Origin: Leucoraja ocellata
Lineage: Eukaryota
Assembly: GCA_036785375.1 (NCBI GenBank)
Contig: JAWMAR010000015.1
Coordinates: 6,634,001 to 6,698,000 of the forward strand
Direction of reading: 5' to 3'
DNA: 64,000 nt
The position numbers and the translations under genes are program-made. Shown here piece by piece: positions 37,291-62,465 of the stretch. The notes beneath the pieces are model-generated. The model was not told the origin of the DNA. It made no database searches and saw nothing but the letters and a program-made list of their open reading frames with translations. Position 1 is the first letter of the stretch; every line of letters starts with the position of its first letter.

Positions 37291-37397
37291 AATACCTGCT
37301 GGGATTTCACTCGTCCACCATTGGGGTTACCACAAAATCGCCCATCTCGTTCCTCACCAGGCTGGGACAGAATATCACACGAAAACGGATGCCAAAG
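37291..37397 (+). CDS. MICAL3: MICAL3-like exon 13 (EYLLGFHSSTIGVTTKSPISFLTRLGQNITRKRMPK)
   Basis: cctacag|AA..AAG|gtaagc; 107 nt, ends in phase 0; matches MICAL3 SPISFLSKLGQTISRKRSPK. Confidence 0.9.
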
Positions 37398-39358: not shown

Positions 39359-39403
39359 GCTGATGGAGAACTTGGGGCAGGAAGCTACTTGGCAATGAAA
39401 CAT
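39359..39403 (+). CDS. Micro-exon 1 (A-type flanks), ADGELGAGSYLAMKH
   Basis: tctgttttag|45 nt|gtgagttagttcagg; phase 0-0; no stop. Confidence 0.7.
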
Positions 39404-39432
39404 GTGAGTTAGTTCAGGTAGAGGGAACGTCA

Positions 39433-39660
39433 ACCACACTCACCCTGTGAGTACAGTGACCCCTGACCCCACAGTGACCCCTGACCCCACTCACCCTGTG
39501 AGTACAGTGACCCCTGACCCCACTCACCCTGTGAGTACAGTGACCCCTGACCCCACTCACCCTGTGAGTACAGTGACCCCTGACCCCACTCACCTTGTGA
39601 GTACAGTGACCCCTGACCCCACTCACCCTGTCTACAGTGTGACCCCTGACCTAACTCACA
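39433..39660. repeat. 33-nt minisatellite (cccactcaccctgtgagtacagtgacccctgac); variants recur after A-type micro-exons, e.g. ~48925, 50960, 53340, 55600, 58800
   Basis: Directly visible tandem units; produces the 11-aa periodic ORFs in the track. Confidence 0.9.
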
Positions 39661-40152
39661 ACCAGTACACAGAAACCCCCTGACCCTGCTCACGCTGTGT
39701 TGAACAAAAAACCCTTGCCCACCCTCACTCTATGTACAGAGAGAGAGACCCCATTCCCTGCTGCCCCAATAAAGTGATCACGCTTACCCTGTGTACAGAG
39801 CGTCACTTGACCTATCAGACTCTGTGTTCAGTGATCCATGGCCATGAGTACAGAGAAATCTCTGTCCCTATGGAACCTGGGTCTAGAGTGACCACTGGAA
39901 ACTCCGACCCTCTGTATGGTGCCGTGGTCTTGTGCCCTGTGACCCCTGACCCCACGACCTCATGTATAGACAGAACCCTGATCCCTGACCTGATGCCCAG
40001 TGATCCCTGACCCTACATAAGGGATAATGATGTCAGGTTGATGTTTATACCCCTCACACCCAGTGCAGGAAACCATTCCAGGCACCGTGGTCTGTTCAGA
40101 TTTACATTGGGAGCGGACCTGGTGGGGTTATCTCTTTGTCTCTGTCTTTTAG

Positions 40153-40197
40153 GATAATGTAGAACGTGCAACAATGAGCAGGCTGGCAGACAAACAA
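40153..40197 (+). CDS. Micro-exon 2 (A), DNVERATMSRLADKQ
   Basis: gtcttttag|45 nt|gtgagttag. Confidence 0.75.
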
Positions 40198-40224
40198 GTG
40201 AGTTAGTTCCAGTAGTTTAGTTTA

Positions 40225-40490
40225 GTTTAGAGACACCGTGCGGAAACAGGCCCTTTGGCCCACCGAGTCAGTGCCGACCTGCGATTCCCGTACACTAGCA
40301 CTATCCTATACACTAGGGACAATTTACAGTTTCTACAGAAGCCAATTAACCTACAAACCTGTACATCTTTGGTGTGTGGGAGGAAACCGGAGCACCCGGG
40401 GAAAACCCACGCAGTCACTGGGAGAACGTCCAGACTCCGTACAGACAGCACCTGTAGCTTGGATCGAACCCGGGACCCTGGCGGTGTAAT
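40225..40490 (-). mobile_element. tRNA-derived SINE
   Basis: Reverse complement of the 21280 SINE, with a (tttag)n tail at ~40215. Confidence 0.8.
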
Positions 40491-40827
40491 GTATAAACTC
40501 TACCGCCTCACCCAGGCCGTAGAGGGAATGACAACCCCGCTCACCTGTGAATACTGTGACCCATGGACCCACTCACCATTTCTACAGGGTGACCCCTGGC
40601 CCCACTGTCCTAAACACAGTCACCTGTCTCAACTCACTGTGCTCCCCCTTAACCTGACCCCACACACAGTGCGCAGACTGACCTCTGGCCCCACCTGCCA
40701 TTCTTCTCATTTCCTTCACTGACTGTGTGATGAAAGATCTTCCGGGCTCCTCTCCTCCACACACTTTTGTCTTGAATGGTTTATGATAATGGATGAATGA
40801 TTTGATTCTATTTCTTTCCAATTTTAG

Positions 40828-40872
40828 GGATTTTTAAACCGTACGCCTACAACAGCAGAACTTGACAAATCA
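40828..40872 (+). CDS. Micro-exon 3 (divergent), GFLNRTPTTAELDKS
   Basis: caattttag|45 nt|gtgagtttg. Confidence 0.65.
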
Positions 40873-41939
40873 GTGAGTTTGCCCTCTAGTGTAGTGACTG
40901 AGGCTTTCAGCTCATTAAGCACCTTGACCCAAGTTCCTCTTGAGCTAGACCCTGCCTACAGTCCTCACCCACTGACCCCAATGTACGGTGTAACCCCTGA
41001 CCCCATGTGCAGTGTGACCCTTGAATCTCCTGAACCATGTACGCAGTGTGACCCTTGAACCCAGTGATCCACGCACATAATCACTGAACCCTGTGTACAG
41101 AGCCCCCCCCCCCCCACTGTATAGACTGGTACAGCGTGACTCCTGACCACTGCTACTGTACCTGCTGACCCCAAAACCTGCTGACCTCGTGTAGACTGAC
41201 CCCCTCCCATGTACTGACCGGTACACTGTGAACCCTGATCCCATTGAACAGTATTACTTCATCCCCTGCACTGACCAATACACTGTGACCTCTCAATCTA
41301 CTGACCCCCGACTCTTGTATCAGCATGTACACTGTGACCCATGAACCTGTGGATACTGTTTTCATTGTAAGAGGAATTGGTTATTTAATCATTGTGTGTA
41401 GCCACTTTGTGGCGCCCCACCCTCCATGTGACGCATCTCCCTCCAGCTCCTTTTCCTGTTAATATGCCTTGATTATCAGCAACTTTATGTTTGATGTGAA
41501 CATGCCTTCAGCTGCCATTTACAGGAGAGACATTCACACTTCCAACCTATTTTCACGTTCCCTGTTTCCCAGCAGGCTAGTTCTCTCCGTTAGACTGAGT
41601 TCTTTGTGCCTCATCTGCCCAATCATAAAAGTCACTCGTTTTCGATCTCACCTTGTTGTTCTGATTTATATCTGACAAACCGGGAAGGAATCCTCCAGAT
41701 GCCAAGCTAAACTTGCCTGGTTTGTGGAGTCTGCATTAACCTCTGGGTGGAGGACACAGACACCATCAGGGCGTTCTGGCTTGGAGTGTGCCTCCGAGCT
41801 GCTCACACCTCTCCAGCTGGGTTCGCACGGGGACCATGTACACCCTTTGTACAGACCGTTGCGGTCCAGCCCCTTGAATGGAAATTGTTGATTTAATTCT
41901 GATCTTTACCTAACTTTTTCCAAGGATCAAGACTATATA

Positions 41940-43720: not shown

Positions 43721-44320
43721 TACACATTGGACAGACAGCGTTCGTTGTTGCCTCGCCGGCGATTGTGTTGAGGATTTTGTGCTTCTGATTCACTGAATTT
43801 TCCCAGGACGTCCATCATGCTCTCCTCGTCCTTTACAGCCAATAACACCACTGCATTCACCATCCCCACCATAGCCTTATTTCCACTCGCCGTGTCCATG
43901 CGTTCCTTGCCTAAGGCACCTTCCCTGCTCCACAACACCCATCGTTGGATACCACCCAGTAACGTCACTCAGAGACGCGGAGTCCTATTGACACTGGCCC
44001 TGTGTACACCTGCACATACTGGGGTGTATACCAACTGTGTACACAGGCGCGTGTGTACAGTGTCCCGCAGACTGCTGAGAAGCCTGAGTATGTGTGCCAA
44101 GTGGACAATGTGTTAGCCTCCCCTTCGCACAGCAGTGTTCACCCAACTTTCACCTTAGGTATGGTGACACCAGAGCTCTAGACTGTAAGATCATTAACCT
44201 CTGACCCTCTCCACCCATCTCGTGTACACTGACACTCTCCCCATTCTGACCCCATCCATCTGTGTATTCTGACCCTGTCCTCTCCTTTTCAGATTTGTTG
44301 ACATTCTTTTTGTGTTTTAG

Positions 44321-44362
44321 GCCATGTATAGAAGTATGACAGTTCAAACTCCAGTGAAACGA
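44321..44362 (+). CDS. Micro-exon 4 (divergent, B-like), AMYRSMTVQTPVKR
   Basis: tgtgttttag|42 nt|gtgagtg. Confidence 0.65.
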
Positions 44363-44955
44363 GTGAGTGTGTCCTTTGTACAACAATGCAGTGGTCATTG
44401 TCACCATTGATTCTGTAGAGTGTCAACCTATCTGCTCGGGTTTGTAACTGATTCCAAGGTACAGAGTAACACCTGACCCCCATTACAGAGCAGTCCCTGT
44501 CCCCACTGACCATGTGTTGTATAGTGACCCCTGACCCCACTAACTGCAGTCACCTCTGACCCCGTTGCCCCTATTTAGAGAGAAACCTCTTCCCCATGGA
44601 CCCTGTGTACAGAGTGACCATTGAGACCACTGATCCTTTGTATAGTCACAGCTGACCCCGGGCCTAGGCAGAACCCCCAATCTCACTGACCCTGTGACCA
44701 GTGACCCCTGTATAAAGGATGATGAAGGGTCTCAACCCGAAACGCCACCTATTCCTTTTCTCCAGAGATGCTGCCCGACCCGTTGAATTACTCCAGATTT
44801 CTGTGCCGATCTAAGGGATGATGAGGTCGGGTGAAGTCGATACCCCTCACACCCAGTGTAGGGGATTATCCCAGGTACCGTGGTCAGTACGGATTTACAT
44901 CGGGAGTGGACCTGCAGTTTCTTTTTGGGCTTATCTCTGTGTCTCTGTGTTTTAG

Positions 44956-45000
44956 GAAAATGTAGTACTTGAAGCATTGTCCAGACCGTCGCCGAAACAA
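44956..45000 (+). CDS. Micro-exon 5 (A), ENVVLEALSRPSPKQ
   Basis: tgtgttttag|45 nt|gtgagttagttcagg. Confidence 0.75.
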
Positions 45001-45714
45001 GTGAGTTAGTTCAGGTAGAGGGTAGGACAACCCTGCTCACCGTGTGAACACAGTGATCCCTGACCCCACTCGCCCCTGACCCCATGCACCGTGTTCAGGG
45101 TCTCCTTGACCCCACTGACCGGTCTGCAATGACCCCTGACGCCACACCCTGTGGAGAGGGACACCTCTGATCCACTGACCTGTGCACAAAGTGACCCCTG
45201 AATGTACTCACACTTTGTACATTGACTGGCCGACCTACTACCTGTTGTGTACAGAGGGCCTCTGTCCCCTGACCCCCTTGTCCCTGTGTACGGGGTGACC
45301 GCACTCTCCCAGTGCACAACCAGACCCCTGTCCCTGCTATCTCTGGGGACAGAGACAGAGACCACGGTTCTCACTGACCCTATTTATTTGGAGACATTTC
45401 ATCCCGATCAGCATGTCTGCTGAACTGTTTGAGCCTGTGTGCAGAGGGTCCCCTTTCCCCTCTGACCCTGTGTAAAGAGGGAACACCGGGAGTCCCCAGT
45501 CACCTCTAACCTTGCCTCTGATGGGATTCATGTCCAAACCCAGGCATCGGGTGGGGCCTGTCCCCCGGGGCCGGTGCTGTTGTTACTCGGTGCCCCCGTG
45601 GTTCGTTTGCCGGTTTCCCGGTGTGAACACCAGCCCTGGGTCTGCTTCATCACAGCTGCAGATCACCGAGACCGACTCCCACCTCTGACGCCCTTCTGTG
45701 TGTTTGTGTTTTAG

Positions 45715-45759
45715 GCTTATGGTAGAAGTGTTACAGCTATGAAGCTTGCAGAGAAACAA
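45715..45759 (+). CDS. Micro-exon 6 (B), AYGRSVTAMKLAEKQ
   Basis: ctgac branch-like site, tgtgttttag|45 nt|gtgagttagta. Confidence 0.75.
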
Positions 45760-46039
45760 GTGAGTTAGTACCCGCGTACATAGAGTAGCAGGAACCCACT
45801 GTGTAGACCGACTCTTGACCCCACTGACCTTGGGGAAGGAGTGACCCATGACCCTACTGACCCTGTGTACAGAATGCACATTTTGACCCTATGTACAGTT
45901 TGAACCTGTTGCCTTTGACCTTACTGTTAGAGTGGCTCCTGAACACGAAATGATAATCCGATTTCTCTGACCCTTTGTTCAGTGACCCCTGACCTTGGGT
46001 ATAGACATAACTGAGCCCTGTCCTCACTGACCCTATGTA

Positions 46040-46440
46040 AAGGATGACCTGTCCAGGTGAGACAGACGTTCACCTGCTCCTCCTATAACCCCATCTACTC
46101 CATTCAATGCTATCGATGTGGCCTGCTCAACATTGGCGAGACTGTTTTGTCGAACACTTACAGTCTGTCCACAAAGGCCTGCTGGATCTCCCTGTTACCA
46201 ACCATGTTAACTCCCCTTCCTACTTCCATATTGACTTTTCTGTCCTGTGCCTCCTTCATTACCAGAGTGAGGACACAAGCGAACTGGAGGAAGTACACCT
46301 CATATTCTGCTTGGGTAACTTAAAACCCAACAACATGAACATTCAATTCTCAGATTTTAGGTAACCCTCCCCCCTAGCACCTCTGCTGACCATTCTAGGT
46401 TTTCTCTGCATACATTTCTTACCACTCCCTCTCCCCTGTC
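46040..46440 (+). mobile_element. Penelope GIY-YIG fragment co-duplicated with the array (copies at ~47710-48100, ~59950-60230, ~61075-61380)
   Basis: QTFTCSSYNPIYSIQCYRCGLLNIGET; DLPVTNHVNSPS..LEEVHLIFCLG. Confidence 0.75.
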
Positions 46441-46647
46441 ACCCCTGCCCCCACACTGACCCTGAGTACTGAGTGACACTTGAGCCACTCACCCTGTGTA
46501 CAGTGCGACCCCTGACCCTACCAACACTGTGCGCAGTGACCCCCCCCCCCGGCCCCACCAACATTCTATAGTTAACCCATTCACCCTGTGAGCAGTGACC
46601 CCTGACCTCCCTGAGGGCCCCCAGTCATCTCTAACCTTGCCGTGGAT

Positions 46648-47047
46648 CAGAGATCCTGTAGCGAGCAAGATAGATCACTCGACGAAAAAGACGCAATACG
46701 GTCATGGGCAGATACATGGGAAATTTTAGGCCCCATTTCCGTATCCGGCTTCCGTCTCCGCACCAAAGATCCCATAGCGGAGCAAAGATAACTAGTGGAG
46801 AGATGGAAGCCGGTTACGGAAACATCCTCGTATAAATAAAAGTTCTTTGGTAAAAATCTTCTTCTCATTTTCAGAATTTTAATTTATTAACACAAACAGT
46901 TCCCTCGCAACATTGATTACACTGCGAGTCGGGTCGGGTTACGGAAATGGATGAAGAAAAGTCCCACGTTCCGCTCCGTTGCGTACTACACGTCAGCCCA
47001 TTGCAGTTAGCAGGAGTGATCTATCTTCCTCCGTTATAGGATCTTTG
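46648..47047. mobile_element. Non-autonomous DNA transposon (MITE), hAT-like, 400 bp
   Basis: Imperfect ~34-bp TIRs (cagagatcctgtagcgagcaagatagatcactc / gagtgatctatcttcctccgttataggatctttg); 8-bp TSD ccgtggat/ccttggat. Confidence 0.8.
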
Positions 47048-47244
47048 CCTTGGATGGGGTTCCTGTCCAAACCCAGGCATCGGGTGGGGCCTGTTCCCCG
47101 GGGCCGGTACTGTCGTCACTCGGTGCCCCCATGGTCTGGTTGCCGGTTTCCCGGTGTGAACACCAGCCTTGGATCTGCTTCATCACAGCCGCAGATCACC
47201 GAGACCGACTCCCACCTCTGACATCCTGTGTGTTTGTGTTTTAG

Positions 47245-47289
47245 GATTATGGTAGAAGTGTTGCAACTATGAAGCTTGCAGAGAAACAA
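47245..47289 (+). CDS. Micro-exon 7 (B), DYGRSVATMKLAEKQ
   Basis: ttttag|45 nt|gtgagttag. Confidence 0.75.
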
Positions 47290-48494
47290 GTGAGTTAGTA
47301 ACCGCGTACAGAGAATAGCAGGAACCCACTGTGTAAACTGTTTCCTGACCCCACTGACCTTGTGTAAGGAGTGACCCCTGACCCCAGTGACCCTGTGTAC
47401 AGAATGAACACTGGCCACACCAGCCTTTGTGCAAAGGGACCTCTGATTCAGATTCAGATTCAGATTCAATTTAATTGTCATTGTCAGTGTACAGTACAGA
47501 GACAACGAAATGCATTATAGACAACGAAATGCATTTTGACCTGAACACTTTGACCCCGTGTACAGTTCGACCCTGTTGCCTTTGACCTTACTGTTAGTGG
47601 CTCCTGAACACGAGGTGATAATCTAATTTCTCTGACCCTTTGTTCAGTGACCCCTGACCTTGTGTATAGACATTACTGAGCCCTGTCCTCACTGACCCTA
47701 TGTAAAGGATGACCTGTCCAGGTGAGACAGACGTTCACCTGCTCCTCCTATAACCCCATCTACTCCATTCAATACTATCGATGTGGCTTGCTCAACATTG
47801 GCGAGACTGTTTTGTCGAACGCTTACAGTCGGTCCACAAAGGCCTGCTGGATCTCCCTGTTACCAACCATGTTAACTCCCCTTCCTACTTCCATATTGAC
47901 TTTTCTGTCCTGCACCTCCTTCATTACCAGAGTGAGGACACATGCGAACTGTAGGAAGTACACCTCATATTCTGCTTGGGTAACTTAAAACCCAACAACA
48001 TGAACATTCAATTCTCAGATTTTAGGTAACCCTCCCCCCTAGCACCTCTGCTGACCATTTTAGGTTTTCTCTGCATACATTTCTTACCGCTCCCTCTCCC
48101 CTGTCACCCCTGCCCCCACACTGACCCTGAGTATTGAGTGACACTTGAGCCACTCACCCTGTGTACGGTTCGACCCCTGACCCTACCAACACTGTGTGCA
48201 GTGACACCCCCCCCCGGCCCCACCTATATTCTATAGTAACCCCATTTACTCTGTGAGGAGAGTGACCCCTGACCTCCCTGAGAGCCCCCAGTCACCTCTA
48301 ACCTTGCCTCAGATGACGCTCCTGTCCAAACCCAGGCATCGGGTGTGGGGCGGTCTGACATCCCCCCCCCCCAGCCGGTGCTGGTCCGTTTGCCGGTTCC
48401 CCGGTGTGAACACCCACCCTGGGTCTGCTTCATTACAGCCGCAGATCACTGAGACCGACTCCCACCTCTGACGTCCTGTGTGTTTGTGTTTTAG

Positions 48495-48542
48495 GATTAT
48501 GATGATAGACGTGTTACAGCTATGAAGATTGCAGGGAAACAA
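48495..48542 (+). CDS. Micro-exon 8 (B), DYDDRRVTAMKIAGKQ
   Basis: ttttag|48 nt|gtgagttag. Confidence 0.75.
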
Positions 48543-48847
48543 GTGAGTTAGTACCCCGCGTACAGAGAGTAGCAGAAGCTGTATAAAGTGCCCCTGAGCC
48601 CACTGACCCTGTGTATGGAGTGAGTCCTAAGCCCACAGCCTACGTGTGCAGAATAGCCCTTGACCCAACTGACTGTATAACATGATCCCTGATCCTGCTG
48701 CCTCTGTTTTATAGTGACCTCTGACCCCACACACAGTGTTCGTCTGACCCCACTGACCCCACATTGACATGGTCATTTGGATTAAAAACTGCCTTACTCA
48801 TTGCAGGCTGCTGTTGATGGGTTTATCACTATGTTTCTGTGTTTTAG

Positions 48848-48892
48848 GATAATTTAGGACGTGAGCCAATGACCCACCTGGTAGAGAGACCT
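48848..48892 (+). CDS. Micro-exon 9 (A), DNLGREPMTHLVERP
   Basis: ttttag|45 nt|gtgagttag. Confidence 0.72.
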
Positions 48893-49400
48893 GTGAGTTA
48901 GTTCAGGTAGAGGGGACGATAACCTCACTCACCCTGTGAACACAGCACAGTGACCCCTGACCCCACGCACCCTATGAAATTGGTGACCCCTGACCCCACA
49001 CCCTGTGAACACAGTGACCCCTGAACCCACTCATCCTGTGTATACAGTGACCCCTGATCCCACTCACTCTGTGAACAGTGACCCCTGACCCCACTTGCCT
49101 TGTATAGAGCGACCCTTGACCTCACTCAATTGTATAGAGTGACCCCATGCATCTTGTGTGGTGTCCCCTGACCCCACTCACTTATCTATAGTCACTGCTG
49201 ACGCCACTCCCCATGTATACAGAGCCACCCTGACTCATTGTGTACAGAGTGATCATTGACCCCCACATACCATGTGAGGAGAGTCCTAACAGAGACCCCC
49301 CCCCCCCCCCCCCCCGTCAACTAACCTTGCCTTGGATTGGGTTCCTGCTTCATCGCAGCCGCAGATCCCACCTCTGACGTCCTCTGTGTTTGCGTTTTAG

Positions 49401-49448
49401 GATTACGATGATAGACGTGTTACAGCTATGAAGATTGCAGGGAAACAA
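49401..49448 (+). CDS. Micro-exon 10 (B), DYDDRRVTAMKIAGKQ
   Basis: ttttag|48 nt|gtgagttag. Confidence 0.75.
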
Positions 49449-49579
49449 GTGAGTTAGTACCCTGCGTACAGAGAGTAGGAGGAACCCACTGTGTACAGAG
49501 TAACTCCTGACCCCACTGCTCTTGAGCGCAGAGTGACCCTTGACCCCATGTACAGAGGGACCCTTGTCCTGACTGAACA

Positions 49580-50605
49580 GTCGTACAGCACTAGAAACAG
49601 GCCCTTTGGCCCACCACGGCCATGCCAATTATTGGACCCATCTATACTCATCCCATTTTTCTTCATTTGGACCTCAGTCTCCTCTGCCTGTGTGATGCAA
49701 GGGCCTGTCTAAATGCTTCTTAAATGCTGTGATGTCTCTGCTCCCACCATTGCCTCAGGACAGCACATTCCAGGTTCCGATCACACTCTTTGTAAAAGCA
49801 TTCCCTTTCAGCCCTCTCTAAACCTCTCACTTTAAACCCATTCCCTCAAATCTACCATGGGGAAAAAGATTTTTGCTATCATTTCTATCTATTCCACTAC
49901 GCTCATAATTTTGTATACTTCTATCAGCTCATCCGTCAGACCCCAAAACTCCAGGGAAAGCAAATTCAGCCTATCCAGTTTCTCCTTATAACTGAGGAAT
50001 AAATAATGTAGGCAAAACTTTTTTCGCCCAGGTTAGAAATATCAACAACCAGAAAGCATACCTGTAAGGTGCAGGGGGCAATGTTTAAAGAAGGTGCAGG
50101 GAATGTTTTTTACACAGAGGGTAGTGGGTGCCTGGAACGCGCTGCCAGGCCTGGTAGTGGAGGCACATACGGTTGTGGCTTTTAAGAGGCAATGACTGGA
50201 GGATTATGGATTATGTGCAGGCAAATCTTGGAATCATGTTCTGCACAGACATCCTGGACCAATGAGCTTGTTCCTGTTCTGTACTGTTCTATGAAATGCT
50301 CCAAACCATTCAATATCTCAAATTGTCTTAAGCATGTTCCCCAGTGTAATCAGTCCTGTCCTATCGTGTGGTGACCAGACCTGCTCGCAATATTCGAGGT
50401 GAGGCCTAACCAGTGTTTTATAAAGCTGTAACACCATGTCCCTGCTCTTATATTCTCTGGCCTGAACAATGAAGACAAGCATCAAAGATGCCTTCTTCAC
50501 CACCCTCTCCACTTGTGCTGCCAGTTCCAGGGATCAGTGGGCCTCTACCGAAAGGTCCCTCTGGTCATCAACACTCTAGAGCTCTGCCGGTTACTGTGTC
50601 CACCT
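49580..50605. mobile_element. Mosaic of CR1 fragments in both orientations, co-duplicated (copies at ~51515-52920 and ~56250-57360)
   Basis: VLQLYKTLVRPHLEYCEQVWSPH (minus strand) and ttttacacagagggtagtgggtgcctggaac (plus strand). Confidence 0.75.
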
Positions 50606-50881
50606 TAGTCTCAGACAACCCACCTCCCTCTCCGCAAAAACACCAAGTCACCCATTGACCCCATGTACTGACTGACCCTGATCCAAGTGAATCTGTGAAC
50701 AGAGTGACCCCCCCCCCCCATAACGCACATACAGATAGACCCCTGACAAAGACCCTGTGTACAGACTGACCCTTTACACCCAGTGCAGGGAACCATCCCA
50801 GGCACCACGGGCAGCTCAGATTTACATCGGGTGCAGACCTGCAGATTGTTGATGGGTTTATCGCTGTGTTCTGTGTTTTAG

Positions 50882-50926
50882 GATAATTTAGGACGTGAGC
50901 CAATGACCCACCCGCCAGAGAGACAT
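50882..50926 (+). CDS. Micro-exon 11 (A), DNLGREPMTHPPERH; GC donor
   Basis: ttttag|45 nt|gcgagttag. Confidence 0.5.
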
Positions 50927-51337
50927 GCGAGTTAGTTCAGGCAATGGGAATGACAACCCCACTCACCCTGTGAACACGGTGACCTCTGATCCCACTCATC
51001 CCGTGAACACAGTGACCCCTGACCCCATTCACCTTGTGAATATGGTGACCCCTGACCCCACTCACCCTCTTTACATTGTGACCTTTGACGTCACTCAGTT
51101 GTATAGAGTGACCCCATGACCCTTGTGCAGTGACCCCTGACCCCACCCACTTATCTACAATCATTGCTGACTCCACTCCCCATGCGTACAAAGTGATCCC
51201 TGACCCCACATACCCTGTGAGGAGAGTGACTCCTAACAGAGCCCCCCCTCGTCACCTCTAACCTTGCCTTGGATGGGGTTCCTGCTTCATCGCTGCTGCA
51301 GATCCCACCTCTGACATCCTGTGTGTTTGTGTTTTAG

Positions 51338-51382
51338 GATTATGACAGACGTGTTACAACTATGAAGATTGCAGGGAAACAA
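51338..51382 (+). CDS. Micro-exon 12 (B), DYDRRVTTMKIAGKQ
   Basis: ttttag|45 nt|gtgagttag. Confidence 0.75.
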
Positions 51383-52198
51383 GTGAGTTAGTACCCTGTG
51401 TACAGAGAGTAGGAGGAACCCACTGTGTAGAGTAACCCCTAACCTCACTGCTCTTGTGCGCGGAGTGACCCTTGACCCCATGTACCAAGGGACCCTTGTC
51501 ATGACTGACTCTGAACAGTCGTACAGCAGTAGAAACAGGCCCTTTGGCCTACCATGGCCATGCCAATTATTGGACCCATCTATACTAATACCATTTACCT
51601 GCATATGGACCTCAGTCTGTGCGATGCAAGGGCCTGTATAGATGCCTCTTAAATCCTGTGATGTCTCAGCTTCCACCACTGCCTCGGGCAGCACATTCCA
51701 GATTCTAATCACATTCTTTGTGAAAGAATTCCCTTTCAGTTCTCTCTAACCCTCACTTTAAACCCATTCCCTCAAATCTCAGACACCGCTACCATGGGAA
51801 AAAGATTTTTGCTATCAATCCTATCTATTCCGCTCCGCTCATAATTTTGTATACTTCTATTAGATCATTTGTCAGACTCCAATACTCCAGGGAAAGCAAA
51901 TTCAGCTTATCCAGTTTCTCCTTGTATAACTGAGTGTATAACTAGAAAGCATACCTATAAGGTGCAGGAGGCAATGTTTAAAGAAGGTGCAGGGAATGTT
52001 TTTTTACAGAGGATAGTGGTTGCCTTGAACGCTCCGCCAGGCCTGGTGGTGGAGGCGTATACGATCGTGGCTTTTAAGAGGCAATGAATGGAAGATTATG
52101 GATTATGTGCAGGCAGATCTTGGAATCATGTTCTGCACAGACATCCTGGGCCAATGTGCTTGTTCCTGTTCTGTACTGTTCTATGAAATGCTCCAAAC

Positions 52199-52545
52199 CT
52201 GGGGTGGGGAACCTTTACATGGTGGAAGGATGCATTGTTGGCTGTGATCTAATAAGGCCGCATCCAAAAAGCTTCAAATAGATATACTTCAAAATGTACA
52301 TTATTTTGTTAAAATAGCCCTCGTGACTTACTAATGTTTTAATTGTGGCCGTCATTCGGGGAGGATTATTTTGTTGAATGTTCTTTTACTCTTTGGTATT
52401 TTAAATAAGTTTATGATTAAAATAAAAATAATAAAAGATGAACAAAGAACATATTAATAATAATAAAAAGATTTGTTCTACAAAATTTAGATTCATTCAA
52501 AAGGCCGCACTTAATGGCTTAGAAGGCCGCAGGTCCCCACCCCTG
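52199..52545. mobile_element. hAT-Charlie-like MITE, 347 bp
   Basis: TIRs ctggggtggggaacct / aggtccccacccctg; exact 8-bp TSD ctccaaac; empty site present in the paralogous unit at ~50300. Confidence 0.88.
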
Positions 52546-53265
52546 CTCCAAACCATTCAATTTCTCAAATTGTCTAAGCATTTTCCCCAGTGTAATCAGA
52601 CCTGTCCTATCGTGTGGTGACCAGACCTGCTCGCAATACTGAGGTGAGGCCTAACCAGTGTTTTATAAAGCTGTAACACCATGTCCCTGCTCGTATATTC
52701 TCTGCCCTGACCAGTGAAGACAAACATCCCAGATGCCTTCTTCACCACCCTCTCCACGTGCTGCCAGTTCCAGGGATAGGTAGGCTTCTACCCAAAGGTC
52801 CAACTGTTCTTCAACAGTCCAGGCATCTACCGTTTACTGTGTACACCTTACCCTTGACTGCCCTTGGAAAGTGCACCGCCTCACAATTGTCAGGATTAAA
52901 TACCATTTACCGTTGCTGCATCCCGGCTTCCACCTGATCCATACCATGTTATAGTCTCAGACAACCCACCTCCCTCTCCACAAAAACACCAAGTCACCCA
53001 TTGACCCCGTGTACCCCAATAACATGTATACAGATTGACCCCTGGCCACGACCCTGTGTACAGACTGACCCTTGATCCCACTGACCCCGAGTACAATGAC
53101 CCATTACACCTTTTTACCTTGTATAAAGAATAATGATGTCAGGTTGATCATACCCCTCACACCCAGTGCAGGGAACCATCCCAGGCACCGTGGGCAGCTC
53201 AGATTTACATCGGGTGCAGACCTGCAGATTGTCGACGAGTTTATCACTGTGTTTCTGTGTTTTAG

Positions 53266-53310
53266 GATAATTTAGGACGTGAGCCAATGGCCCATCCGGC
53301 AGAGAGACGT
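53266..53310 (+). CDS. Micro-exon 13 (A), DNLGREPMAHPAERR
   Basis: ttttag|45 nt|gtgagttag. Confidence 0.72.
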
Positions 53311-53599
53311 GTGAGTTAGTTCAGGTAGAGGAAACGACAACCCCACTCACCCTGTGAACACGGTGACCCCTGACCCCCCTCGCCCTGTGGACACGGTGAC
53401 CTCTGACCCCACTCACCCTGTGAACACGGTGACCCCTAACCCCACTCACCCTGTGAACACGGTGACTCCTGACCCCACTCACACTGTGAACACGGTGACC
53501 CCTGACCCCACTCACCTTGTGAACCTGGTGACCCCACTCACACAGTGTTTGTCTGACCCCACAGCGACCTGGTCATTTGGATTCTAAACTGCCTTACAC

Positions 53600-54410
53600 A
53601 TTGCAGTCAGTGAGAAGGACTGTCAAATAATTCAGTGGAATGTAGATCAGCAACAGAAATGGCTGAAAAAATGGCAGATTGAGTTAATGTGAGCAAATGT
53701 GTGAGGTTTTGCATTTTGGAGGATTGAATGGAAAAACATACAGTTAATGGCAAGACACTTGATAACATTGATGTACAGAGATCTACATAGCTCCCAGAGA
53801 GTGGCAACACATGCAGATAAAGAAGGCATGTGGTATGCTTGCCCTCGCTGGTTGAGTAGAAGAGTCAGGTAGTCATAATGCAGTTAATGGCCACATTTGG
53901 GGAGTACAGCATGCAGTTCTAATCATCCCATTATTGTGAAGGCTTTGTGGAGAGGTTTAACATAATGCTACTTAGTCCAGGTGGTATTAGCCACAAAGAG
54001 AGGTTGGACAAACTTAGGATTGTTTTCTCTGGAAAGATGGAGGTTGAGGGGTGTCCTGACTGAAGAAAACAAAACGATGAGAGGCATAGATAGGGTAGAC
54101 AGTCAGCACCTTTTTTCCCCAGGGTGGAAATGTCAAAAACTAGAGGGCATAGCTTTAAGGTGAGAGGGGCAAAGCGTAAACGAGATGTGTGGGGCAAGTT
54201 TTACACAAAGGGTGGTCAGTGCCTGGAACATGCTTCTAGTGGTGGTTGTTGAGGTAAATACTATGGTTTTTAAAGAGGCTTTTAGATAGGCATATACATG
54301 TAGAGTGATGTGGATTGTGAGCAGGCAGATGAAATTAGTTTATCTTTGCATCATTTGCAACACAGATATTGTGAGCCGAAGGGCAGTATTTCTTCTGTGT
54401 TCAGAGTGTT
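53600..54410 (+). mobile_element. CR1-like LINE 3' fragment
   Basis: aaaatggcagattgagttaatg; LGLFSLERWRLRG; actagagggcatagctttaaggtgagaggg. Confidence 0.8.
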
Positions 54411-54799
54411 CTGTGTAAAGAGTGGCCCTGAGCTCAATGACACTCTGTCCAGAATGACCATTGACGGTATGTTCATACTGATCCCTGATCCCAGCAACCC
54501 TATGTGTTGTGACCACATATCCACGAACCCTGCGGAAAACCCTGACCTGAGTGACCACCTGCAGTGATCCCTGACCCCAGTTAACCCTATGTATAAACAG
54601 AACCCTGACCTCGCTGACACTGTGTTCAGTAACCACTGGCCCACTGACCCTGTATAAAGGATGAAGATGTCAGGTTGATGTCTGAACCCCCAGGACCCAG
54701 TGCAGGGAGTGATCCCAGGCACTGTGGTCTATTCGGATTTACATCGAGAGCAGCCCTGGAGATCGCTGATGGGTTTGTCTCTGTGTTTCTGTGTTTTAG

Positions 54800-54844
54800 G
54801 ATCATTTAGGACGTGAGGCAGTAACCAGGCCGGCAGAGAAACAA
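54800..54844 (+). CDS. Micro-exon 14 (A), DHLGREAVTRPAEKQ
   Basis: ttttag|45 nt|gtgagttag. Confidence 0.75.
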
Positions 54845-55522
54845 GTGAGTTAGTTCAGGGACAGGGAGCGTCAACCCTAGGAACACAGTGACCCTACTCG
54901 CCTTGTGTACAGAGTGACCCTTCCCGACAAGCATCCCAGATGCCTTCTTCACCACCCCCTCCACTTGTGCTGCCATTTCCAGGGACCAGTGGGCATCAAC
55001 CCAAAGGTCCCTCTGTTCTTCAACACTCTAGAGCTCTGCCGTTTACTGTGTCCACCTTACCCTTGACTGCCCTTGGAAAGTGCACCGCCTCACGAATTGT
55101 CAGGATTAAATACCATCTACAGTTGCTCCATCCAGCCTTCCACCTGATCCATACCATGTTGTAGTCTCAGACAACCCCCCTCCCTCTCCACAAAAACACC
55201 GTCACCCATTGACCCCATGTACTGACTGACCCTGATCCAAGTGAATCTGTGAACAGAGTGACCCCACTGCCCCATAATGTGCAGACAGATTGACCACTGA
55301 CAACGATCCTGTGTACAGACTGACCCTTGATCCCACTGACCCTGAGTTCAATGACCCATTACACTTTTTTACCTTGTATAAAGAATAATGATGTCAGGTT
55401 GATTTTCATACCCCTGACACCCAGTGCAGGGAACCATCCCAGGCACCGTGGGCAGCTCAGATTTACATTGGGAGCGGACCTGCAGATTGCGGATGAGTTT
55501 ATTGCTGTGTTCTGTGTTCTGG

Positions 55523-55568
55523 GGTAATTTAGGACGTGGGCCAATGACCCACCCGGCAGAGAGACATT
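55523..55568 (+). pseudogene. Micro-exon 15 (A), dead copy (pseudo-exon)
   Basis: Acceptor ttttag changed to ttctgg; length 46 nt (extra T before gtgagt). Confidence 0.75.
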
Positions 55569-56067
55569 GTGAGTTAGTTCAGGTAGAGGAGACAACAACC
55601 CCACTCACCCTGTGAACACGGTGACCCCTGACCCCACTCACCCTGTGAACACGGTGCCTCTGACACCGCTCACCTTGTATACAGAGTGACCCTTGACCCC
55701 ACCCACCTTCATCACAGTGTGACCATTTACCCCACTAGCCTTGTATAGAGTGATCCTTGACCCCACTCACCCTCATTACTGTGTGACCCTTGACCTCACT
55801 CAGTGTGTACAGAGCGACCCCATGCACCTTTTGCAGTGACACCTGACCCCACCCACTTGTCTACAGTCACCGCTGACTCCACTCCTCATGTGTACAGAGC
55901 CACCATGACTCACTGTGTACAGCGTGATCCCTGACCCCACATACCCTGTGAGGAGAGTGACTCCTAACAGAGGGCCCCCCGTCATCTCTAGCCTTGCCTT
56001 GGATGGGATTCCTGGTTCATCACAGCTGCAGATCCCACCTCTGACGTCCTGTGTGTTTGTGTTTTAG

Positions 56068-56112
56068 GATTATGACAGACGTGTTACAGCTATGAAGATT
56101 GCAGGGAAACAA
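56068..56112 (+). CDS. Micro-exon 16 (B), DYDRRVTAMKIAGKQ
   Basis: ttttag|45 nt|gtgagttag. Confidence 0.75.
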
Positions 56113-56887
56113 GTGAGTTAGTACCCTGTGTACAGAGAGTAGGAGGAACCCACTGTGCACAGAGTAACCCCTGACCCCACTGCTCTTGTGCCCGGAGTGA
56201 CCCTTGACCACATGTACTGAGGGGACCATTGTCCGGATTGACTCTGTGAACAGTCGTACAGCACTAGAAACAGGCCCTTTGGCCCACCACGGCCATGCCA
56301 ATCATTGGACCCACCTCTACTAATACCATTTACCTGCATATGGACCTCGGTCTCCTCTGCCTGTGAAGCAAGTGCCTGTCTAGATGCTTCTTAAATGCTG
56401 TGATGTCTCTGCTTCCACCACTGCCTCGGGCAGCACATTCCAGGTTCCAATCACTCTCTTTGTGAAAGAATTCCCTTTCAGTCCTCTCTAACCCTCTCAC
56501 TTTAAACCCATTCCCTCAAATCTCAGACAACGCAAGCATGGGGTAAAAGATTTTTGCTATCCATCCTATCTCTTCCACTCCGCTCATAATTTTGTATACT
56601 TCTATCAGGTCATCCGTCAGACTCCAAAACTCCAGGGTGAGCTAATTCAGCCTATCCAATTTTCCCTTATAACTGAGGAATAAATGCCAGCCTGGTGGTG
56701 GAGGCACATACGATTGTGGCATTTAAGAGGCAATGAACGGAGGATTATGGATTATGTGCAGGCAGATCTTGGAATGTTCTGCACAGACATCCTGGACCAA
56801 TGGGCTTATTCCTGTTCTGTACTGTTCTATGAAATGTTCCAAACCATTCAATATATCAAATTGCCAAAGCATGTTCCCTAGTGTAAT

Positions 56888-57010
56888 AGACAATAGGTGC
56901 AGGAGTAGGCCATTCGGTCCTTAGAGCCAGCACTGCCATTCAATGTGATCATGGCTGATCATCCCCAATCAGTACCCCGTTCCTGCCTTCTTTCCATAGC
57001 CCCTGACTCC
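56888..57010 (-). mobile_element. Short CR1-type 3' tail insertion (similar tails at ~58037-58113 and, on +, ~62560-62635)
   Basis: agacaataggtgcaggagtaggccattcgg.. flanked by gtaat on both sides; absent from the paralogous site at ~50345. Confidence 0.75.
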
Positions 57011-57732
57011 GTAATCAGACCTGTCCTATCATGTGGTGACCAGACCTGCTTGCAATACTGAGGTGAGACCTAACCAGTGTTTTATAAAGCTGTAACACCA
57101 TGTCCCTGCTCTTATATTCTCTGCCCTGACCCGTGAAGACAAGCATCCCAGATGCCTTCTTCACCACCCTCTCCACTTGTGCTGCCAGTTCCAGGGATAG
57201 TTAGGCCTCTACCCAAATGTCCATTTGTTCATCAACACTCTAGGCATCTACCGTTTACTGTGTCCACCTTGCCCTTGACTGCCCTTGGAAAGTGCACGTC
57301 CTCACAATTGTCAGGATTAAATACCATCTACAGTTGCTCCATCCAGCCTTCCACCTGATCCATACCGTGTTGTAGTCTCAGACAACCCACCTCCCTCTCC
57401 ACAAAAACACCGTCACCCATTGACCCCATGTACTGACTGACCTTGATCCAACTAAACCTGTGAACAGAGTGACCCCCCCCAACATAACGTGCATACAGAT
57501 TGACCCCTGACCACGACCCGTGCACAAACTGACCCTTGACCCCCACTGACCCCGAATAAAATGACCCTTTACACGTTTTTACCTTGTATAGAGGATGATG
57601 ATATCAGGTTGATGTTCCTACCCCTCACACCCAGTGCAGGGAACCATCCCAGGCACCGTGGGCAGCTAAGATTTATGTTGGGAGCAGACCTCCAGATTGT
57701 TGATGAGTTTATCGGTGTGTTTTGTGTTTTAG

Positions 57733-57777
57733 GATAACTTAGGACGTGAGCCAATGACCCAACCGGCAGAGAGACGT
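57733..57777 (+). CDS. Micro-exon 17 (A), DNLGREPMTQPAERR
   Basis: ttttag|45 nt|gtgagttag. Confidence 0.72.
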
Positions 57778-58241
57778 GTGAGTTAGTTGAGGTTGAGGGA
57801 ACGACAAACCCCACTCACCTTGTAAACACGGTGACCCCTGATCCCACTCACCCTTATACAGGGTGACCATTGACCCCACTCATCCGCGTCACAGTGCGAC
57901 CTTTGACATCACTCATTGTATACAGAGTGACCCCCTGATCCCACCCACTTGTCCACAGTCACCGCTGACGCCACTCCCCATATGTACAGAGCCACCCTGC
58001 CTCACTGTGTACAGCGTGATTCCTGACCCCACATACAATAGACATTAGGTGCAGGAGTAGGCCATACGGCCCTTCGAGCCAGCACCGCCATTTGATGTGA
58101 TCATGGCTGATCATCCTGTGAGGAGAGTGACTCCTAACAGAGGCCCCCCCCCCCGTCACCTCTAACCTTGCCTCAGATGGGGTCCCTGCTTCATCACAGC
58201 TGCAGATCCCACCTCTGACATCCTGTGTGTTTGTGTTTTAG

Positions 58242-58286
58242 GATTATGACAGGCATGTTACAGCTATGAAGATTGCAGGGAAACAA
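58242..58286 (+). CDS. Micro-exon 18 (B), DYDRHVTAMKIAGKQ
   Basis: ttttag|45 nt|gtgagttag. Confidence 0.75.
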
Positions 58287-58723
58287 GTGAGTTAGTACCC
58301 TGTGTACAGAGAGTAGGTGGAACCCACTGTGTACAGAGTAACCCCTAACCTCACTGCTCTTGTGCCCTGCCTCACAATTATCAGGATTAAATACAATCCA
58401 CGGTTGCTCCATCCAGCCTTCCACATGATCCATACCATGTTGTAGTCTCAGACAACCCACCTCCCCCTCCACAAAAGCACCGTCACCCATTGGCCCCATG
58501 TACTGACTGACCTTGATCCAAGTGAACCTGTGAACAGAGTGACCCCCCTCCATAATGTGCATACAGAATGACCCCTGATCACGACCCTGGGTACAGACTG
58601 ACCCTTCATACCCCTCACACCCATTCCAGGGAACCATCCCAGGCACCGTGGGCAGTTCAGATTTACATTGGGAGCGGACCTGCAGATTGTTGATGAGTTT
58701 ATCGCTGTGTTTCTGTGTTTTAG

Positions 58724-58768
58724 GATAATTTAGGACGTGAGCCCATGTCCCAACCGGCAGAGAGACAA
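58724..58768 (+). CDS. Micro-exon 19 (A), DNLGREPMSQPAERQ
   Basis: ttttag|45 nt|gtgagttag. Confidence 0.75.
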
Positions 58769-59294
58769 GTGAGTTAGTTCAGGCAGCGGGAATGACAACC
58801 CCACTCACTGCGAACACGGTGACCCCTGACCCCACTCACCCATTGTACAGTGTCCCCTGAGCCCAGTCACCTTGTGAGTATGGTGACCCATGACCCCGCT
58901 CACCCTGTAAACACAGTAACCCCTGACCCCACTCACCCTGTGCACACGGTGACCCCTGACCCCACTCACCCTGTGAACACAGTGACCCCTGACCCCACTC
59001 GCCTTGTATACAGAGTGACCCTTGACCTCATTCACCCTCTTTACAATGTGACCGTTGACCTCATTCAATGTGTAGAACGACCCCATACACCCTGTGTAGT
59101 GACCCCTGACCCCACCCACCTGTCTACAGTCACCACTGACGCCACTCAGAATGATCCCTGACCCCACATACCCTGTGAGGAGAGCGACTCCTAACGGAGG
59201 GCACCCTATCACCTCTATCCTTGCCTTGGATGGGGTTCCTGCTTCATGGCAGCTGCAGATCCCATCTCTGACATCCTGTGTGTTTGTGTTTTAG

Positions 59295-59339
59295 GATTAT
59301 GATAGACGTGTTACAGCTATGAAGATTGCAGGGAAACAA
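59295..59339 (+). CDS. Micro-exon 20 (B), DYDRRVTAMKIAGKQ
   Basis: ttttag|45 nt|gtgagttag. Confidence 0.75.
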
Positions 59340-60434
59340 GTGAGTTAGTACCCTGTGTACAGAGAGTAGGAGGAACCCACTGTGTACAGAGACACCTGAC
59401 CCCACTGACCTTGTGTAAGGAATGACCCCTGACTCTGCTGACCCTTTGGTCAGAGTGATCACTATTCTTGCCCCCATGCACAAAAATCACCCCTGACCCC
59501 ACTAATCCTAGAACAGAATGAACACTGGCCACACCAGCCTTTGTGCAAAGGGGCCTCTGAACAGGCCTTTGACCCTGTGATAGACACAAAGTGCTGGAGT
59601 AACTCAGCAGGTCAGGCAGCATCTCTGGAGAAAACTAATAGGTAATGTTTCGGGTCAGACTGATGAAGGGTCTCAACACGAAATGTCACCTATTCCTTTT
59701 CTCCAGAGATGTTTCCTGACCCGCTGAGTTACTCAAAAATGTTATGTCTATCATCGGTGTAAACCAGCATCTACAGTTCCTTCTTACACCTTTGTCCCTG
59801 TGTACAGTTTGACACCGTTGCCTTTGACCTTACTGTTAGAGTGACTCCTGAAAACTACATAGTGACAATCTGATTCCTCTGACCCTTTGTTCAGTGACCG
59901 CTGACCCTGTGTATAGACATTACTGAGCCCTGTCCTCAGTGACCTTGTGTAAAGGATGACCTGTCAGTCCTTCTAGCTGAGACAGGCGTTCAGCCCGTCT
60001 ACTGCATTCAATGATGTGGCCTGCTTCCCATTGGCAAGACTGATTCACCGAACACTTGCAGTCGGTCCACCAAGGCATGCTGGATCTCTTGGTTACTGTC
60101 CATTTTAACTCTCCTTCCCATTCCCATATCGACCTGTCTGTCCTGGGCCTCCTCCATTACCAGTGTGAGGCACTACATAATTGGAGGAACCACACCTCAT
60201 ATTCTGCTTGGGTAGCTTACAACCCAACACCTTGCCACAGATAGGTTTCCTGTCCAAACCCAGGCATCGGGAGGGGCCTGTCACCCGGGGCTGTTGCTGT
60301 CGTCACTCGGTGACCCCTTGGTCCCGTTGTCAGTTTCCCGGTGTGAACACCAAGCCTGGGTCTGCTTCATCACAGCCGCAGATCACCGAGACCGACTCCC
60401 ACCTCTGACGTCCTTCTGTGTGTTTGTGTTCTAG

Positions 60435-60479
60435 GAGCGTGGTAGAAATGTCACACCTATGAAGCTTGCAGAGAAACAA
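60435..60479 (+). CDS. Micro-exon 21 (B), ERGRNVTPMKLAEKQ
   Basis: gttctag|45 nt|gtgagttaa. Confidence 0.75.
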
Positions 60480-61713
60480 GTGAGTTAATACCCACGTACA
60501 GAGAACAGCAGGAACCTACTGTGTACAGAGCCACCTGACCCCACTGACCTTGTGTACATAGTACCCCTAACCCTAATGACTATATGTACGGAGTGACCCC
60601 TGATCACACACTCCCTTTGGTCAGAGTGAAGCCTAATCCTGCCCCACGTACAAAATTACCCCTGACCCCACTAATCCTCTGTACAGAATGAACACTGGCA
60701 GCACCAGCCTTTATGCAAAGGGGCCTCTGAACCCTTTGTCCCTGAGATAGACACAAAATGCTGGAGTCACTCAACAGGTTAGGCAGCATCTCTGGAGAAA
60801 ACAGATAGGTTATGTTTCAGATCAGACTGATGAAGGGTCTCGACCCGAAAGGTCACCTATTCCTTTGTTACTCCAGCATTTTGTGTCTTTCTTTGGTGTA
60901 GTTATGCAGTTACTTCTTACACCTTTGACCCTGTGTCCAGTTTGACCCTGTTGCCTTTGACCTTACTGTTAGTGACCCCTGAACACTACAGAGTGACGAT
61001 CGGATTCCTTTGTCAGTGACCGATGGCCGTGTGTATAATCATTACTGAGCCCATGTCCTCACTTGCCCTTTGTAAAGGGTGACCTGTCAGCCCTTCCAGG
61101 TGAGACAGACATTCATGTGCACCTTCTATAACCCCATCTACTGCATACAATGCTATCGATGTGGCCTGCTCCACATTGGCGAGACTGTTTCGCCGAACAC
61201 TTGCAGTCGGTGCACCAAGGCCTGCTGGACCTCTCGGTTACTAACCATCTTAACTCCCCTTCCCATTCCCATAGCGGCCTTTCTGTCCTGGGTCTCATCC
61301 ATTACCAGAGTGAAGCCACACAGAGACTGGAGGAACCACACATCATATTCTGCTTGGGTGGCTTACAACCCAACATGAAAACTGTGTGCAGTGACCCCCA
61401 CCCTCCCCCCCCCCCCCCCCACGGTCCCACCAACATTCTATAGTAAACCCATTCACCCTGTAAGGAGAGTGTCTCCTGACCTCCCTGAGGACCCCCCATC
61501 ACCTCTAACCTTGCCACGGAAGGGATTCCTGTCCAAACCCAGGCATTGGGTGGGGCCTGTCCCCCGGAGCCGGTGCTGTTGTCACTCGGTGCCCCCGTGG
61601 TCCAGTTGCCGGTTTCCCGGTGTGAACACCAAGCCTGGGTCTGCTTCATCACAGCGGCAGATCACCGAGACCGACTCCCACCTCTGACGTCCTTCTGTGT
61701 GTTTGTGTTCTAG

Positions 61714-61758
61714 GAGCATGGTAGAAATGTCACACCTATGAAGCTTGCAGAGAAACAA
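61714..61758 (+). CDS. Micro-exon 22 (B), EHGRNVTPMKLAEKQ
   Basis: gttctag|45 nt|gtgagttag. Confidence 0.75.
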
Positions 61759-62420
61759 GTGAGTTAGTACCCGCGTACAGAGAATAGCACGAACCCACTG
61801 TGTACAGAGCCACCTGACCCCACTGACCTTGTGTACATAGTGACCCCTAACCCCAATGACTATATGTACGGAGTGACCACTGATCCCTCTTTCCCTTTAG
61901 TCAGAGTGATACCCAATCCTGCCACACGTACAAAATTACCCCTGGCCCCACAAACCCTCTATACCGAATGAACACTGGCCACACCAGCAAAGAGGCCTCT
62001 GAACCCTTTGTCCCTGAGATAGGCACAAAATGCTGGAGTCTCTCAGCAGGTTAGGCAGCCATCTCTGGAGAAAACAAATAGGTGACGTTTCAGATCAGAC
62101 TGATGAAGGGTCTTGACCCACCCCCCCACGGTCCCACCAACATTCTATAGTAATCCCATTCACCCTGTAAGGAGAGTGCCCCCTGACCTCCCTTAGGACC
62201 CCCAGTCACCTCTAACCTTTCCACGGAAGGGGTTCCTGGCCAAACCCAGGCATCGGGTGTGGCCTGTCCCCCAGAGCCGGTGCTGTTGTCACTCGGTGCC
62301 CCCGTGGTCCAGTTGCCGGTTTCCCGGTGTGAACACCAAGCCTGGGTCTGCAACATCACAGCCACAGATCACCGAGACCGACTCCCACCTCTGACGTCCT
62401 TCTGTGTGTTTGTGTTTTAG

Positions 62421-62465
62421 GAATATGACAGGCATGTTACAGCTATGAAGATTGCAGGGAAACAA
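62421..62465 (+). CDS. Micro-exon 23 (B), EYDRHVTAMKIAGKQ
   Basis: ttttag|45 nt|gtgagttag. Confidence 0.75.

Follow-up and report, generated by a model that had tools for sequence, protein, structure and literature searches.

A tandem array of 23 short cassettes in skate MICAL3, an apparently undescribed exon amplification

Twenty-three short homologous cassettes follow one another inside a single gene, MICAL3, in a stretch of 64,000 nucleotides (nt) of the skate Leucoraja ocellata (GenBank assembly GCA_036785375.1, contig JAWMAR010000015.1, positions 6,634,001 to 6,698,000 of the forward strand; hereafter the window). The locus raises the question of whether these cassettes are exons, where they came from and what kind of protein they make. 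A first-pass annotation, made from the letters alone, had read them as a lineage-specific expansion of in-frame, phase 0-0 exons, and had proposed that they form either a spacer of variable length or a combinatorial repertoire of isoforms. The expansion itself, with in-frame splicing and some skipping, is supported by RefSeq models and by comparison with sharks and rays. The amplification is real and annotated in RefSeq but apparently undescribed; its ancestor can be traced, and its product was not expected. That the cassettes are spliced as exons in the first place we consider very probable. The wider explanation, in which skates tandemly amplified one optional 45-nt exon that is now mainly used in a short isoform, is in our judgement a reasonably probable one.

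All 23 cassettes lie where they were first placed, and scanning both strands of the entire window with a splice-site profile returned the same 23 on the plus strand and none on the minus strand. The scan profile was built from these cassettes, so the result indicates that none was missed and does not bear on their status as exons. Nineteen are 45 nt long, two 48 nt, one 42 nt and one 46 nt, and the 22 other than the 46-nt one give the 993 nt and 331 amino acids that had been counted. The form described for them is an AG acceptor, the cassette and a GTGAGT donor; cassette 11 departs from it with a GC donor and cassette 15 with a GG acceptor. These two oddities, including the 46-nt length of cassette 15, recur on a second contig of the assembly (C423) and therefore are not sequence errors. 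The cassettes are listed below, with X numbers denoting RefSeq isoform models, those of the little skate L. erinacea unless another genus is named.

39359..39403 (+): cassette 1, 45 nt; homologue in Amblyraja X15
40153..40197 (+): cassette 2, 45 nt
40828..40872 (+): cassette 3, 45 nt, the most divergent
44321..44362 (+): cassette 4, 42 nt; skipped in X2
44956..45000 (+): cassette 5, 45 nt
45715..45759 (+): cassette 6, 45 nt, family C
47245..47289 (+): cassette 7, 45 nt, family C
48495..48542 (+): cassette 8, 48 nt, family B
48848..48892 (+): cassette 9, 45 nt, family A; in X9 only, as a read-through end
49401..49448 (+): cassette 10, 48 nt, family B
50882..50926 (+): cassette 11, 45 nt, family A, GC donor; absent from all 11 models
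51338..51382 (+): cassette 12, 45 nt, family B
53266..53310 (+): cassette 13, 45 nt, family A
54800..54844 (+): cassette 14, 45 nt; closest in sequence to the exon of sharks and rays
55523..55568 (+): cassette 15, 46 nt, pseudo-exon with acceptor GG
56068..56112 (+): cassette 16, 45 nt, family B
57733..57777 (+): cassette 17, 45 nt, family A
58242..58286 (+): cassette 18, 45 nt, family B
58724..58768 (+): cassette 19, 45 nt, family A
59295..59339 (+): cassette 20, 45 nt, family B
60435..60479 (+): cassette 21, 45 nt, family C; order with 22 swapped on C423 and in RefSeq
61714..61758 (+): cassette 22, 45 nt, family C
62421..62465 (+): cassette 23, 45 nt, family B

Frame 0 is free of stop codons in all 23 cassettes and each other frame is interrupted in all 23, counts that come from related copies and do not amount to 23 independent trials. 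A genome-wide pattern search gave 84 matches, 36 of them in this array on the two contigs that carry it (C15, that of the window, and C423); the remaining 48 were scattered and formed no second comparable cluster. The 50 kilobases (kb) after the window held no additional cassette.

The host gene was identified by tblastn and exact matching against the L. erinacea model X1 (P0011), by Pfam and by a match to human MICAL3. Its closest database relatives are the MICAL3 genes of Leucoraja erinacea, Amblyraja radiata and Pristis pectinata, and its 13th coding exon matches residues 679-704 of human MICAL3 in PDB entry 6ICI. On the strength of this match and the names of the source records, the gene is taken to be the MICAL3 of a skate. 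Pfam finds the N-terminal flavin monooxygenase and CH domains, and coding exons 1-13 agree exactly with the L. erinacea protein in every matched segment.

9900..35145 (+): MICAL3 coding exons 1-12, monooxygenase and CH (Pfam Rossman_Mical, CH)
37291..37397 (+): coding exon 13, which ends in phase 0 and begins the CH-LIM linker (human MICAL3 match and RefSeq matching)

RefSeq holds eleven array-bearing models of an L. erinacea "MICAL3-like" gene, X1-X11 (XP_055506374-84), which have in common with the window the gene, 20 cassettes and their order, and an end in Lys-Tyr-stop. In model X1, 20 units match the cassettes of the window in order, with 9, 11 and 15 missing; cassettes 11 and 15 are absent from the other models too. 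One or two units are omitted in X2-X7 and eleven in X10, while X8, X9 and X11 end by reading through a donor. Between 7 and 20 cassettes are chained in a row in each model, and seven of the eleven models keep 18-20. Both exon junctions that the first-pass annotation had predicted occur in these little-skate models. The isoforms are predicted, automatic models; RefSeq isoforms of this kind are usually based on RNA sequencing (RNA-seq).

The same models bear on the proposed Dscam-like repertoire, in which one or few cassettes per mRNA would give many isoforms with distinct binding. Any subset of cassettes keeps the frame and skipping variants do exist, but the models chain long rows of cassettes and mostly drop one or two, several copies code for identical peptides, and the peptides belong to a cytosolic protein and make up no known domain. 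We regard a repertoire of this kind as extremely improbable.

The second contig offers a comparison within the assembly. Positions 318000-347999 of C423 carry the same gene at about 97% identity and most likely represent the alternative haplotype, retained in the assembly. Many of the other genome-wide pattern matches are also paired, which suggests unpurged haplotypes. We rejected an assembly artefact as the source of the array, which is present on two contigs and in RefSeq. Between the window and C423, the 18 used cassettes compared (21 and 22 were left out, their order being swapped) are mismatched at 1 of 813 nt versus 95 of 5,353 nt in the flanks (P 2.7e-5); the three unused cassettes (9, 11 and 15) are mismatched at 3 of 136 nt. 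Among the 23 exons, 129 parsimony changes would be expected to produce about four stops if neutral, and none was observed (P about 0.016). The RefSeq models, the contrast between contigs and the absence of stops together speak for the cassettes being exons.

The inventory first made of the array listed every cassette but missed the exon at which most array-bearing models end.

63358..63795 (+): inferred alternative last exon with acceptor AG, Lys-Tyr-stop and 3' untranslated region; end estimated from the polyadenylation signal
63771..63776 (+): AATAAA, candidate polyadenylation signal

Position 63358, 892 nt after cassette 23, is the sole site in the window at which AG is followed by Lys-Tyr-stop, and the site is also present on C423. 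Eight of the eleven L. erinacea array models end in Lys-Tyr-stop and three read through a donor; in Rhinoraja X13, exon 13 is joined straight to the same Lys-Tyr-stop ending. The next ordinary linker exon after the array starts in phase 0 at window coordinate 67359, 4.0 kb beyond this last exon, and the LIM exon follows at 80310, 17 kb beyond it, with later exons up to residue 1188 on the same contig. The array and the last exon thus lie within one intron of the long transcript, and the last exon has its own acceptor, stop and AATAAA inside that intron, as is characteristic of an intronic alternative last exon.

Donor read-through gives a different ending. At the donors between 39404 and 62466, 20 of 23 read GTGAGTTAG and two more keep the in-frame stop at the same place. 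An unspliced cassette therefore ends the protein two residues on, as in X8, X9, X11 and Amblyraja X15. Separately, the 32-residue C-terminus of Rhinoraja X12 (P0004) resembles three stop-containing intronic places at 50.3-57.2 kb of the window, and was probably read from an intronic repeat.

These endings bear on the other early proposal, that in some tissue the cassettes lengthen the CH-LIM linker of full-length MICAL3 by up to about 300 residues and so loosen autoinhibition. This was the ancestral use, with one to three copies inside LIM-bearing shark and Mobula models; exon 13 and every cassette in use end in phase 0, the phase in which the next linker exon begins; and long MICAL3 linkers have been proposed to affect the autoinhibited state (PMC11315924). 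However, no cassette occurs in any of 15 full-length skate models (Amblyraja X1-X14 and Leucoraja X12), and LIM is missing from all 12 cassette-bearing skate models, both counts excluding Rhinoraja X1-X11. We consider such a spacer unlikely in skates, although a rare cassette-to-LIM form could escape short reads.

We compared the cassettes with MICAL3 models of other vertebrates. The models of Carcharodon, Cetorhinus, Pristiophorus and Rhincodon have one 15-residue segment directly after exon 13, and models lacking it exist as well for Carcharodon and Pristiophorus. In Mobula birostris the number of such segments reaches two, with forms that have none or one, and M. hypostoma has three. Scored against nine skate cassettes, the first inserted 15-mer ranks 1 of the 1,826-2,151 15-mers of its own protein in all six insert-bearing proteins (z 3.9-5.3); six other proteins scored in the same way have no such segment. 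These comparisons give good support to a derivation of the array from one ancestral optional 15-residue exon of elasmobranch MICAL3. A segment after exon 13 in bony vertebrates was tried as the ancestor and rejected, with ranks of 243-596 in four proteins and a best score of -5 in 98 proteins. The first-pass annotation had known of nothing similar in MICAL1-3. This needs qualification: the unit itself occurs as a single exon in shark models and in two to three copies in Mobula, and the linker varies among vertebrate isoforms from 65 to 347 residues in 66 distinct forms. In the stingray lineage, models of Hemitrygon (P0039) and Mobula hypostoma (P0160) contain later linker exons that were separately duplicated in tandem, in two to three copies of segments of about 30 residues; the batoid MICAL3 linker has thus been amplified more than once.

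How the array grew is suggested by its introns. Homology between skate cassettes, which share the same phase, reaches hundreds of bases into the introns, and A-B doublets recur through 48.8-59.4 kb. Because of this extended homology and the repeated doublets, the pattern points to unequal crossing-over as the process that built the array. The cassette tree is weakly resolved (two of 20 inner branches starred), and we therefore claim no order of duplication. The array introns contain a C-rich repeat, TGACCC, 196 times in the sense orientation and once on the other strand, compared with 7 and 12 upstream. Strand-biased TGACCC minisatellites with a period of 17-33 occur over 38300-64000 on both sides of the cassettes, with a peak 50-100 nt after the donor; they could have been inherited from the founder, promote crossing-over or bind a splicing factor. 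Cassettes 21 and 22 stand in opposite order in the window (60435-61758) and on C423 (343664-344410), with spacings of 1279/707 versus 702/1264, the order on C423 being that of RefSeq. The swap may be a true allelic rearrangement or an error of assembly.

Several observations weigh against the explanation that we favour. Short reads cannot link exons across a chain of 20, and apparent skips in predicted models can arise from copies that are nearly identical. The Amblyraja models show cassette 1 only. In the comparison between contigs, a badly aligned flank after cassette 17 contributes 25 of the 95 flank mismatches, and without it 70 of 5,206 remain. The ratio of non-synonymous to synonymous change (pN/pS) is about 0.73 among paralogous copies (three families, with 22 non-synonymous and 8 synonymous variants). 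Between the window and RefSeq, 7 of the 301 tail residues are changed (5 if the swap of 21 and 22 is allowed for), compared with 0 in the matched segments of residues 1-663. On account of this ratio and these differences, the tail peptide is, as far as sequence comparison goes, loosely constrained.

We mapped RNA reads to 43900-63899, a stretch that lies beyond exon 13, from four runs of four studies, not necessarily of the window's species, at a likeness of 90. Each run gave 43,675-112,424 reads, 60-96% of which continued into sequence unlike the stretch, being interspersed-repeat and poly-C reads. In this repeat-swamped mapping, no cassette joint was present among the 15 joints listed of 1,472, and no cassette site among the 24 loose read ends listed of 4,957. 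Clean cassette-bearing bins had a depth of 0-2.6, which indicates that the isoform may be rare in those samples. The bin of cassette 4 had depths of 0.66, 0.23, 0.45 and 0 in the four runs, with the first mate on the minus strand only, and a cassette-free bin reached 0.57 in one run. In the region of 63771 no 3' end was found among those listed, and repeat reads of both strands make up most of that bin.

The same observations would suit an account of the array as a tolerated by-product, in which a minisatellite-rich intron drives unequal crossing-over and copies with strong sites are spliced into a minor truncated transcript for which only the frame matters. The pN/pS among copies, the low read depth, the three degenerate or unused copies, the differing order of 21 and 22 between contigs and the excess of sense TGACCC in the array are what it would lead one to expect. 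It does not sit well with used cassettes that are about ten times more alike between contigs than their flanks, whereas the unused ones are not, with 129 changes that brought no stop, with divergent cassettes 1-5 (50-70% identity) that have retained frame and splice sites, or with a last exon common to Rhinoraja. We think the by-product account distinctly unlikely.

The predicted product of X1 has 966 residues and, by Pfam, contains the monooxygenase and CH domains without LIM and without bMERB, a domain that a domain search found in the Leucoraja X12 model. Its tail of 301 residues has 61 Lys and Arg and 44 Asp and Glu, a net charge of +17 and an isoelectric point of 9.8, and falls on the disordered side of the charge-hydropathy boundary. 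Among 7,998 scored candidates from 90% clusters (lengths 531-1,691 only), the tail matched one, the Leucoraja cluster itself. Ten matches among 50% representatives were unrelated repeat proteins, the named ones bacterial or fungal, that matched by period, and were rejected. A search of the ESM Atlas with the tail gave no usable feature match and structure template modelling (TM) scores of at most 0.40. An AlphaFold prediction from a 16-row alignment had a predicted local distance difference test (pLDDT) of 29, failed for known domains too and was not used.

Published biochemistry suggests what such a product might do. Autoinhibition of MICAL1 requires CH, LIM, the linker helix and the coiled coil, and MICAL2, without the coiled coil, is constitutively active (PMC11557892). 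Mutagenesis extends the autoinhibition scheme to MICAL3 (PMC11315924), and a human MICAL3 fragment of flavin monooxygenase and CH is stimulated by F-actin (PMC6949599). By analogy with this work, and because it has neither LIM nor bMERB, the short form would probably be unrepressed and Rab-independent.

The composition of the tail allows a further alternative, in which the repeats act as a methionine decoy or pseudo-substrate and take the place of the autoinhibitory domain by covering the actin-binding face or absorbing oxidation, with splicing setting the output. MICALs oxidise Met44 and Met47 of actin (PMC9982024). The tail has 18 Met in 301 residues compared with 15 in the first 663; 20 of the 23 cassettes contain Met, at five different positions, and Met is absent from the four shark 15-mers. 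However, most of the methionines descend from two or three founders and so cannot be counted independently, and structure gives the idea no support. We judge a decoy very improbable.

The explanation that we favour, amplification of one optional exon that now mainly serves a short isoform, has four steps. In the first, which is well supported, the duplicated unit would have been an exon with its intron flank, repeated at spacings of 0.35-3.5 kb and often as A-B doublets until there were 23 copies, about 20 of them in use. In the second, taken from the gene models, exon 13 would either skip the whole array and join the ordinary linker, LIM and bMERB exons, or lead through most of the cassettes in succession, a few being skipped at times, to the Lys-Tyr-stop last exon. 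In the third, drawn from MICAL biochemistry, the monooxygenase and CH domains would suffice for F-actin-stimulated catalysis with neither autoinhibition nor Rab recruitment. The fourth and weakest step is a guess from composition: the tail, a flexible, basic repeat of low complexity, might localise the enzyme by binding F-actin or a scaffold weakly at many points, and the skipping of cassettes might tune the length and valency of the tail rather than create distinct specificities. A stronger and unlikely version is that MICAL control here would be by splicing only, the last exon dropping the Rab-gated off-switch and the 20-unit tail serving as actin tether or methionine decoy, so that cassette number would set the rate of actin dismantling in a specialised cell type. 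If that were true, the series of 1 copy in sharks, 2-3 in Mobula and 23 in skates would record an exon array and a new protein end arising together.

The locus would matter for two reasons. It predicts a natural MICAL3 form without the autoinhibition by which the enzyme is normally tightly guarded in cells, and so offers a test of how such an enzyme could be localised without Rab. It also provides a rare graded series of tandem exon amplification (1, 2-3 and 23 copies) that is still changing: three copies are decaying or out of use, and the order of two differs between contigs of the same assembly. The little skate is, moreover, a laboratory model for which RNA data exist.

Other features of the window were noted. 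Against both the RefSeq protein and C423, coding exon 7 (21715-21975) shows three insertions of one base each, which break its frame as assembled. As C423 lacks all three, they are probably consensus errors of the window's contig, and we rejected the possibility that the gene is dead through these frameshifts. On the minus strand upstream of the first coding exon, 4773-6414 holds a retroelement remnant with an RVT_1 match (E 1.7e-11) and an adjoining ALKBH8_N match. Rfam gave no match in 37000-64000.

We compared the array with known systems of repeated or very small exons. Titin PEVK and nebulin contain internal tandem arrays of in-frame exons, and the exons of Dscam are mutually exclusive. 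The 15 full-length skate models do not use the cassettes as an internal spacer of the titin or nebulin type, whereas the one to three copies of sharks and Mobula are used in this way; nor, in the gene models, does each mRNA take one exon as in Dscam. Neural microexons of the SRRM4 type are 3-27 nt long, with a looser cut-off at about 51 nt, so that the skate cassettes of 42-48 nt exceed the first limit and fit the looser one only.

In mammals, MICAL3 is alternatively spliced and has an alternative last exon (PMC12721327, PMC3896118, 10.1101/373704, PMC9982024, PMC4465641), and the accessible text of none of these papers describes the array. We likewise found no published description in the literature searched (subscription journals and supplements were outside the search). 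The alternative last exon of human MICAL3 is of a composite internal/terminal type and, in the part of the source available, has no repeat tail (10.1101/373704). MICAL2 resembles the skate short form in having no coiled coil or bMERB, but unlike it keeps LIM and, according to the accessible text, has no repeat tail (PMC11557892). Micro-exon genes (MEGs) of schistosomes share with the array many short exons, mostly multiples of three, and variation by skipping; they encode whole secreted proteins with signal peptides from exons of 3-81 nt, whereas the skate array is a module on a cytosolic-type enzyme (10.1101/2023.06.21.545858). The P exons of avian fast troponin T are also lineage-specific, repeated small exons in a protein of the actin system, spliced as a block of variable length; there are up to seven of them, acidic, rich in His and Glu and N-terminal in a full-length protein whose tissue is known, in contrast to 23 basic, C-terminal units in a skate form that has lost its regulatory domains (PMC7581897). 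In its workings the skate system resembles these P exons joined to a loss of the inhibitory end like that of MICAL2. The optional exon of sharks and rays has the same junction and length, is homologous and is likewise optional, but it stands in one to three copies in a full-length protein, whereas the 23 copies in the skate are tied to a truncating last exon.

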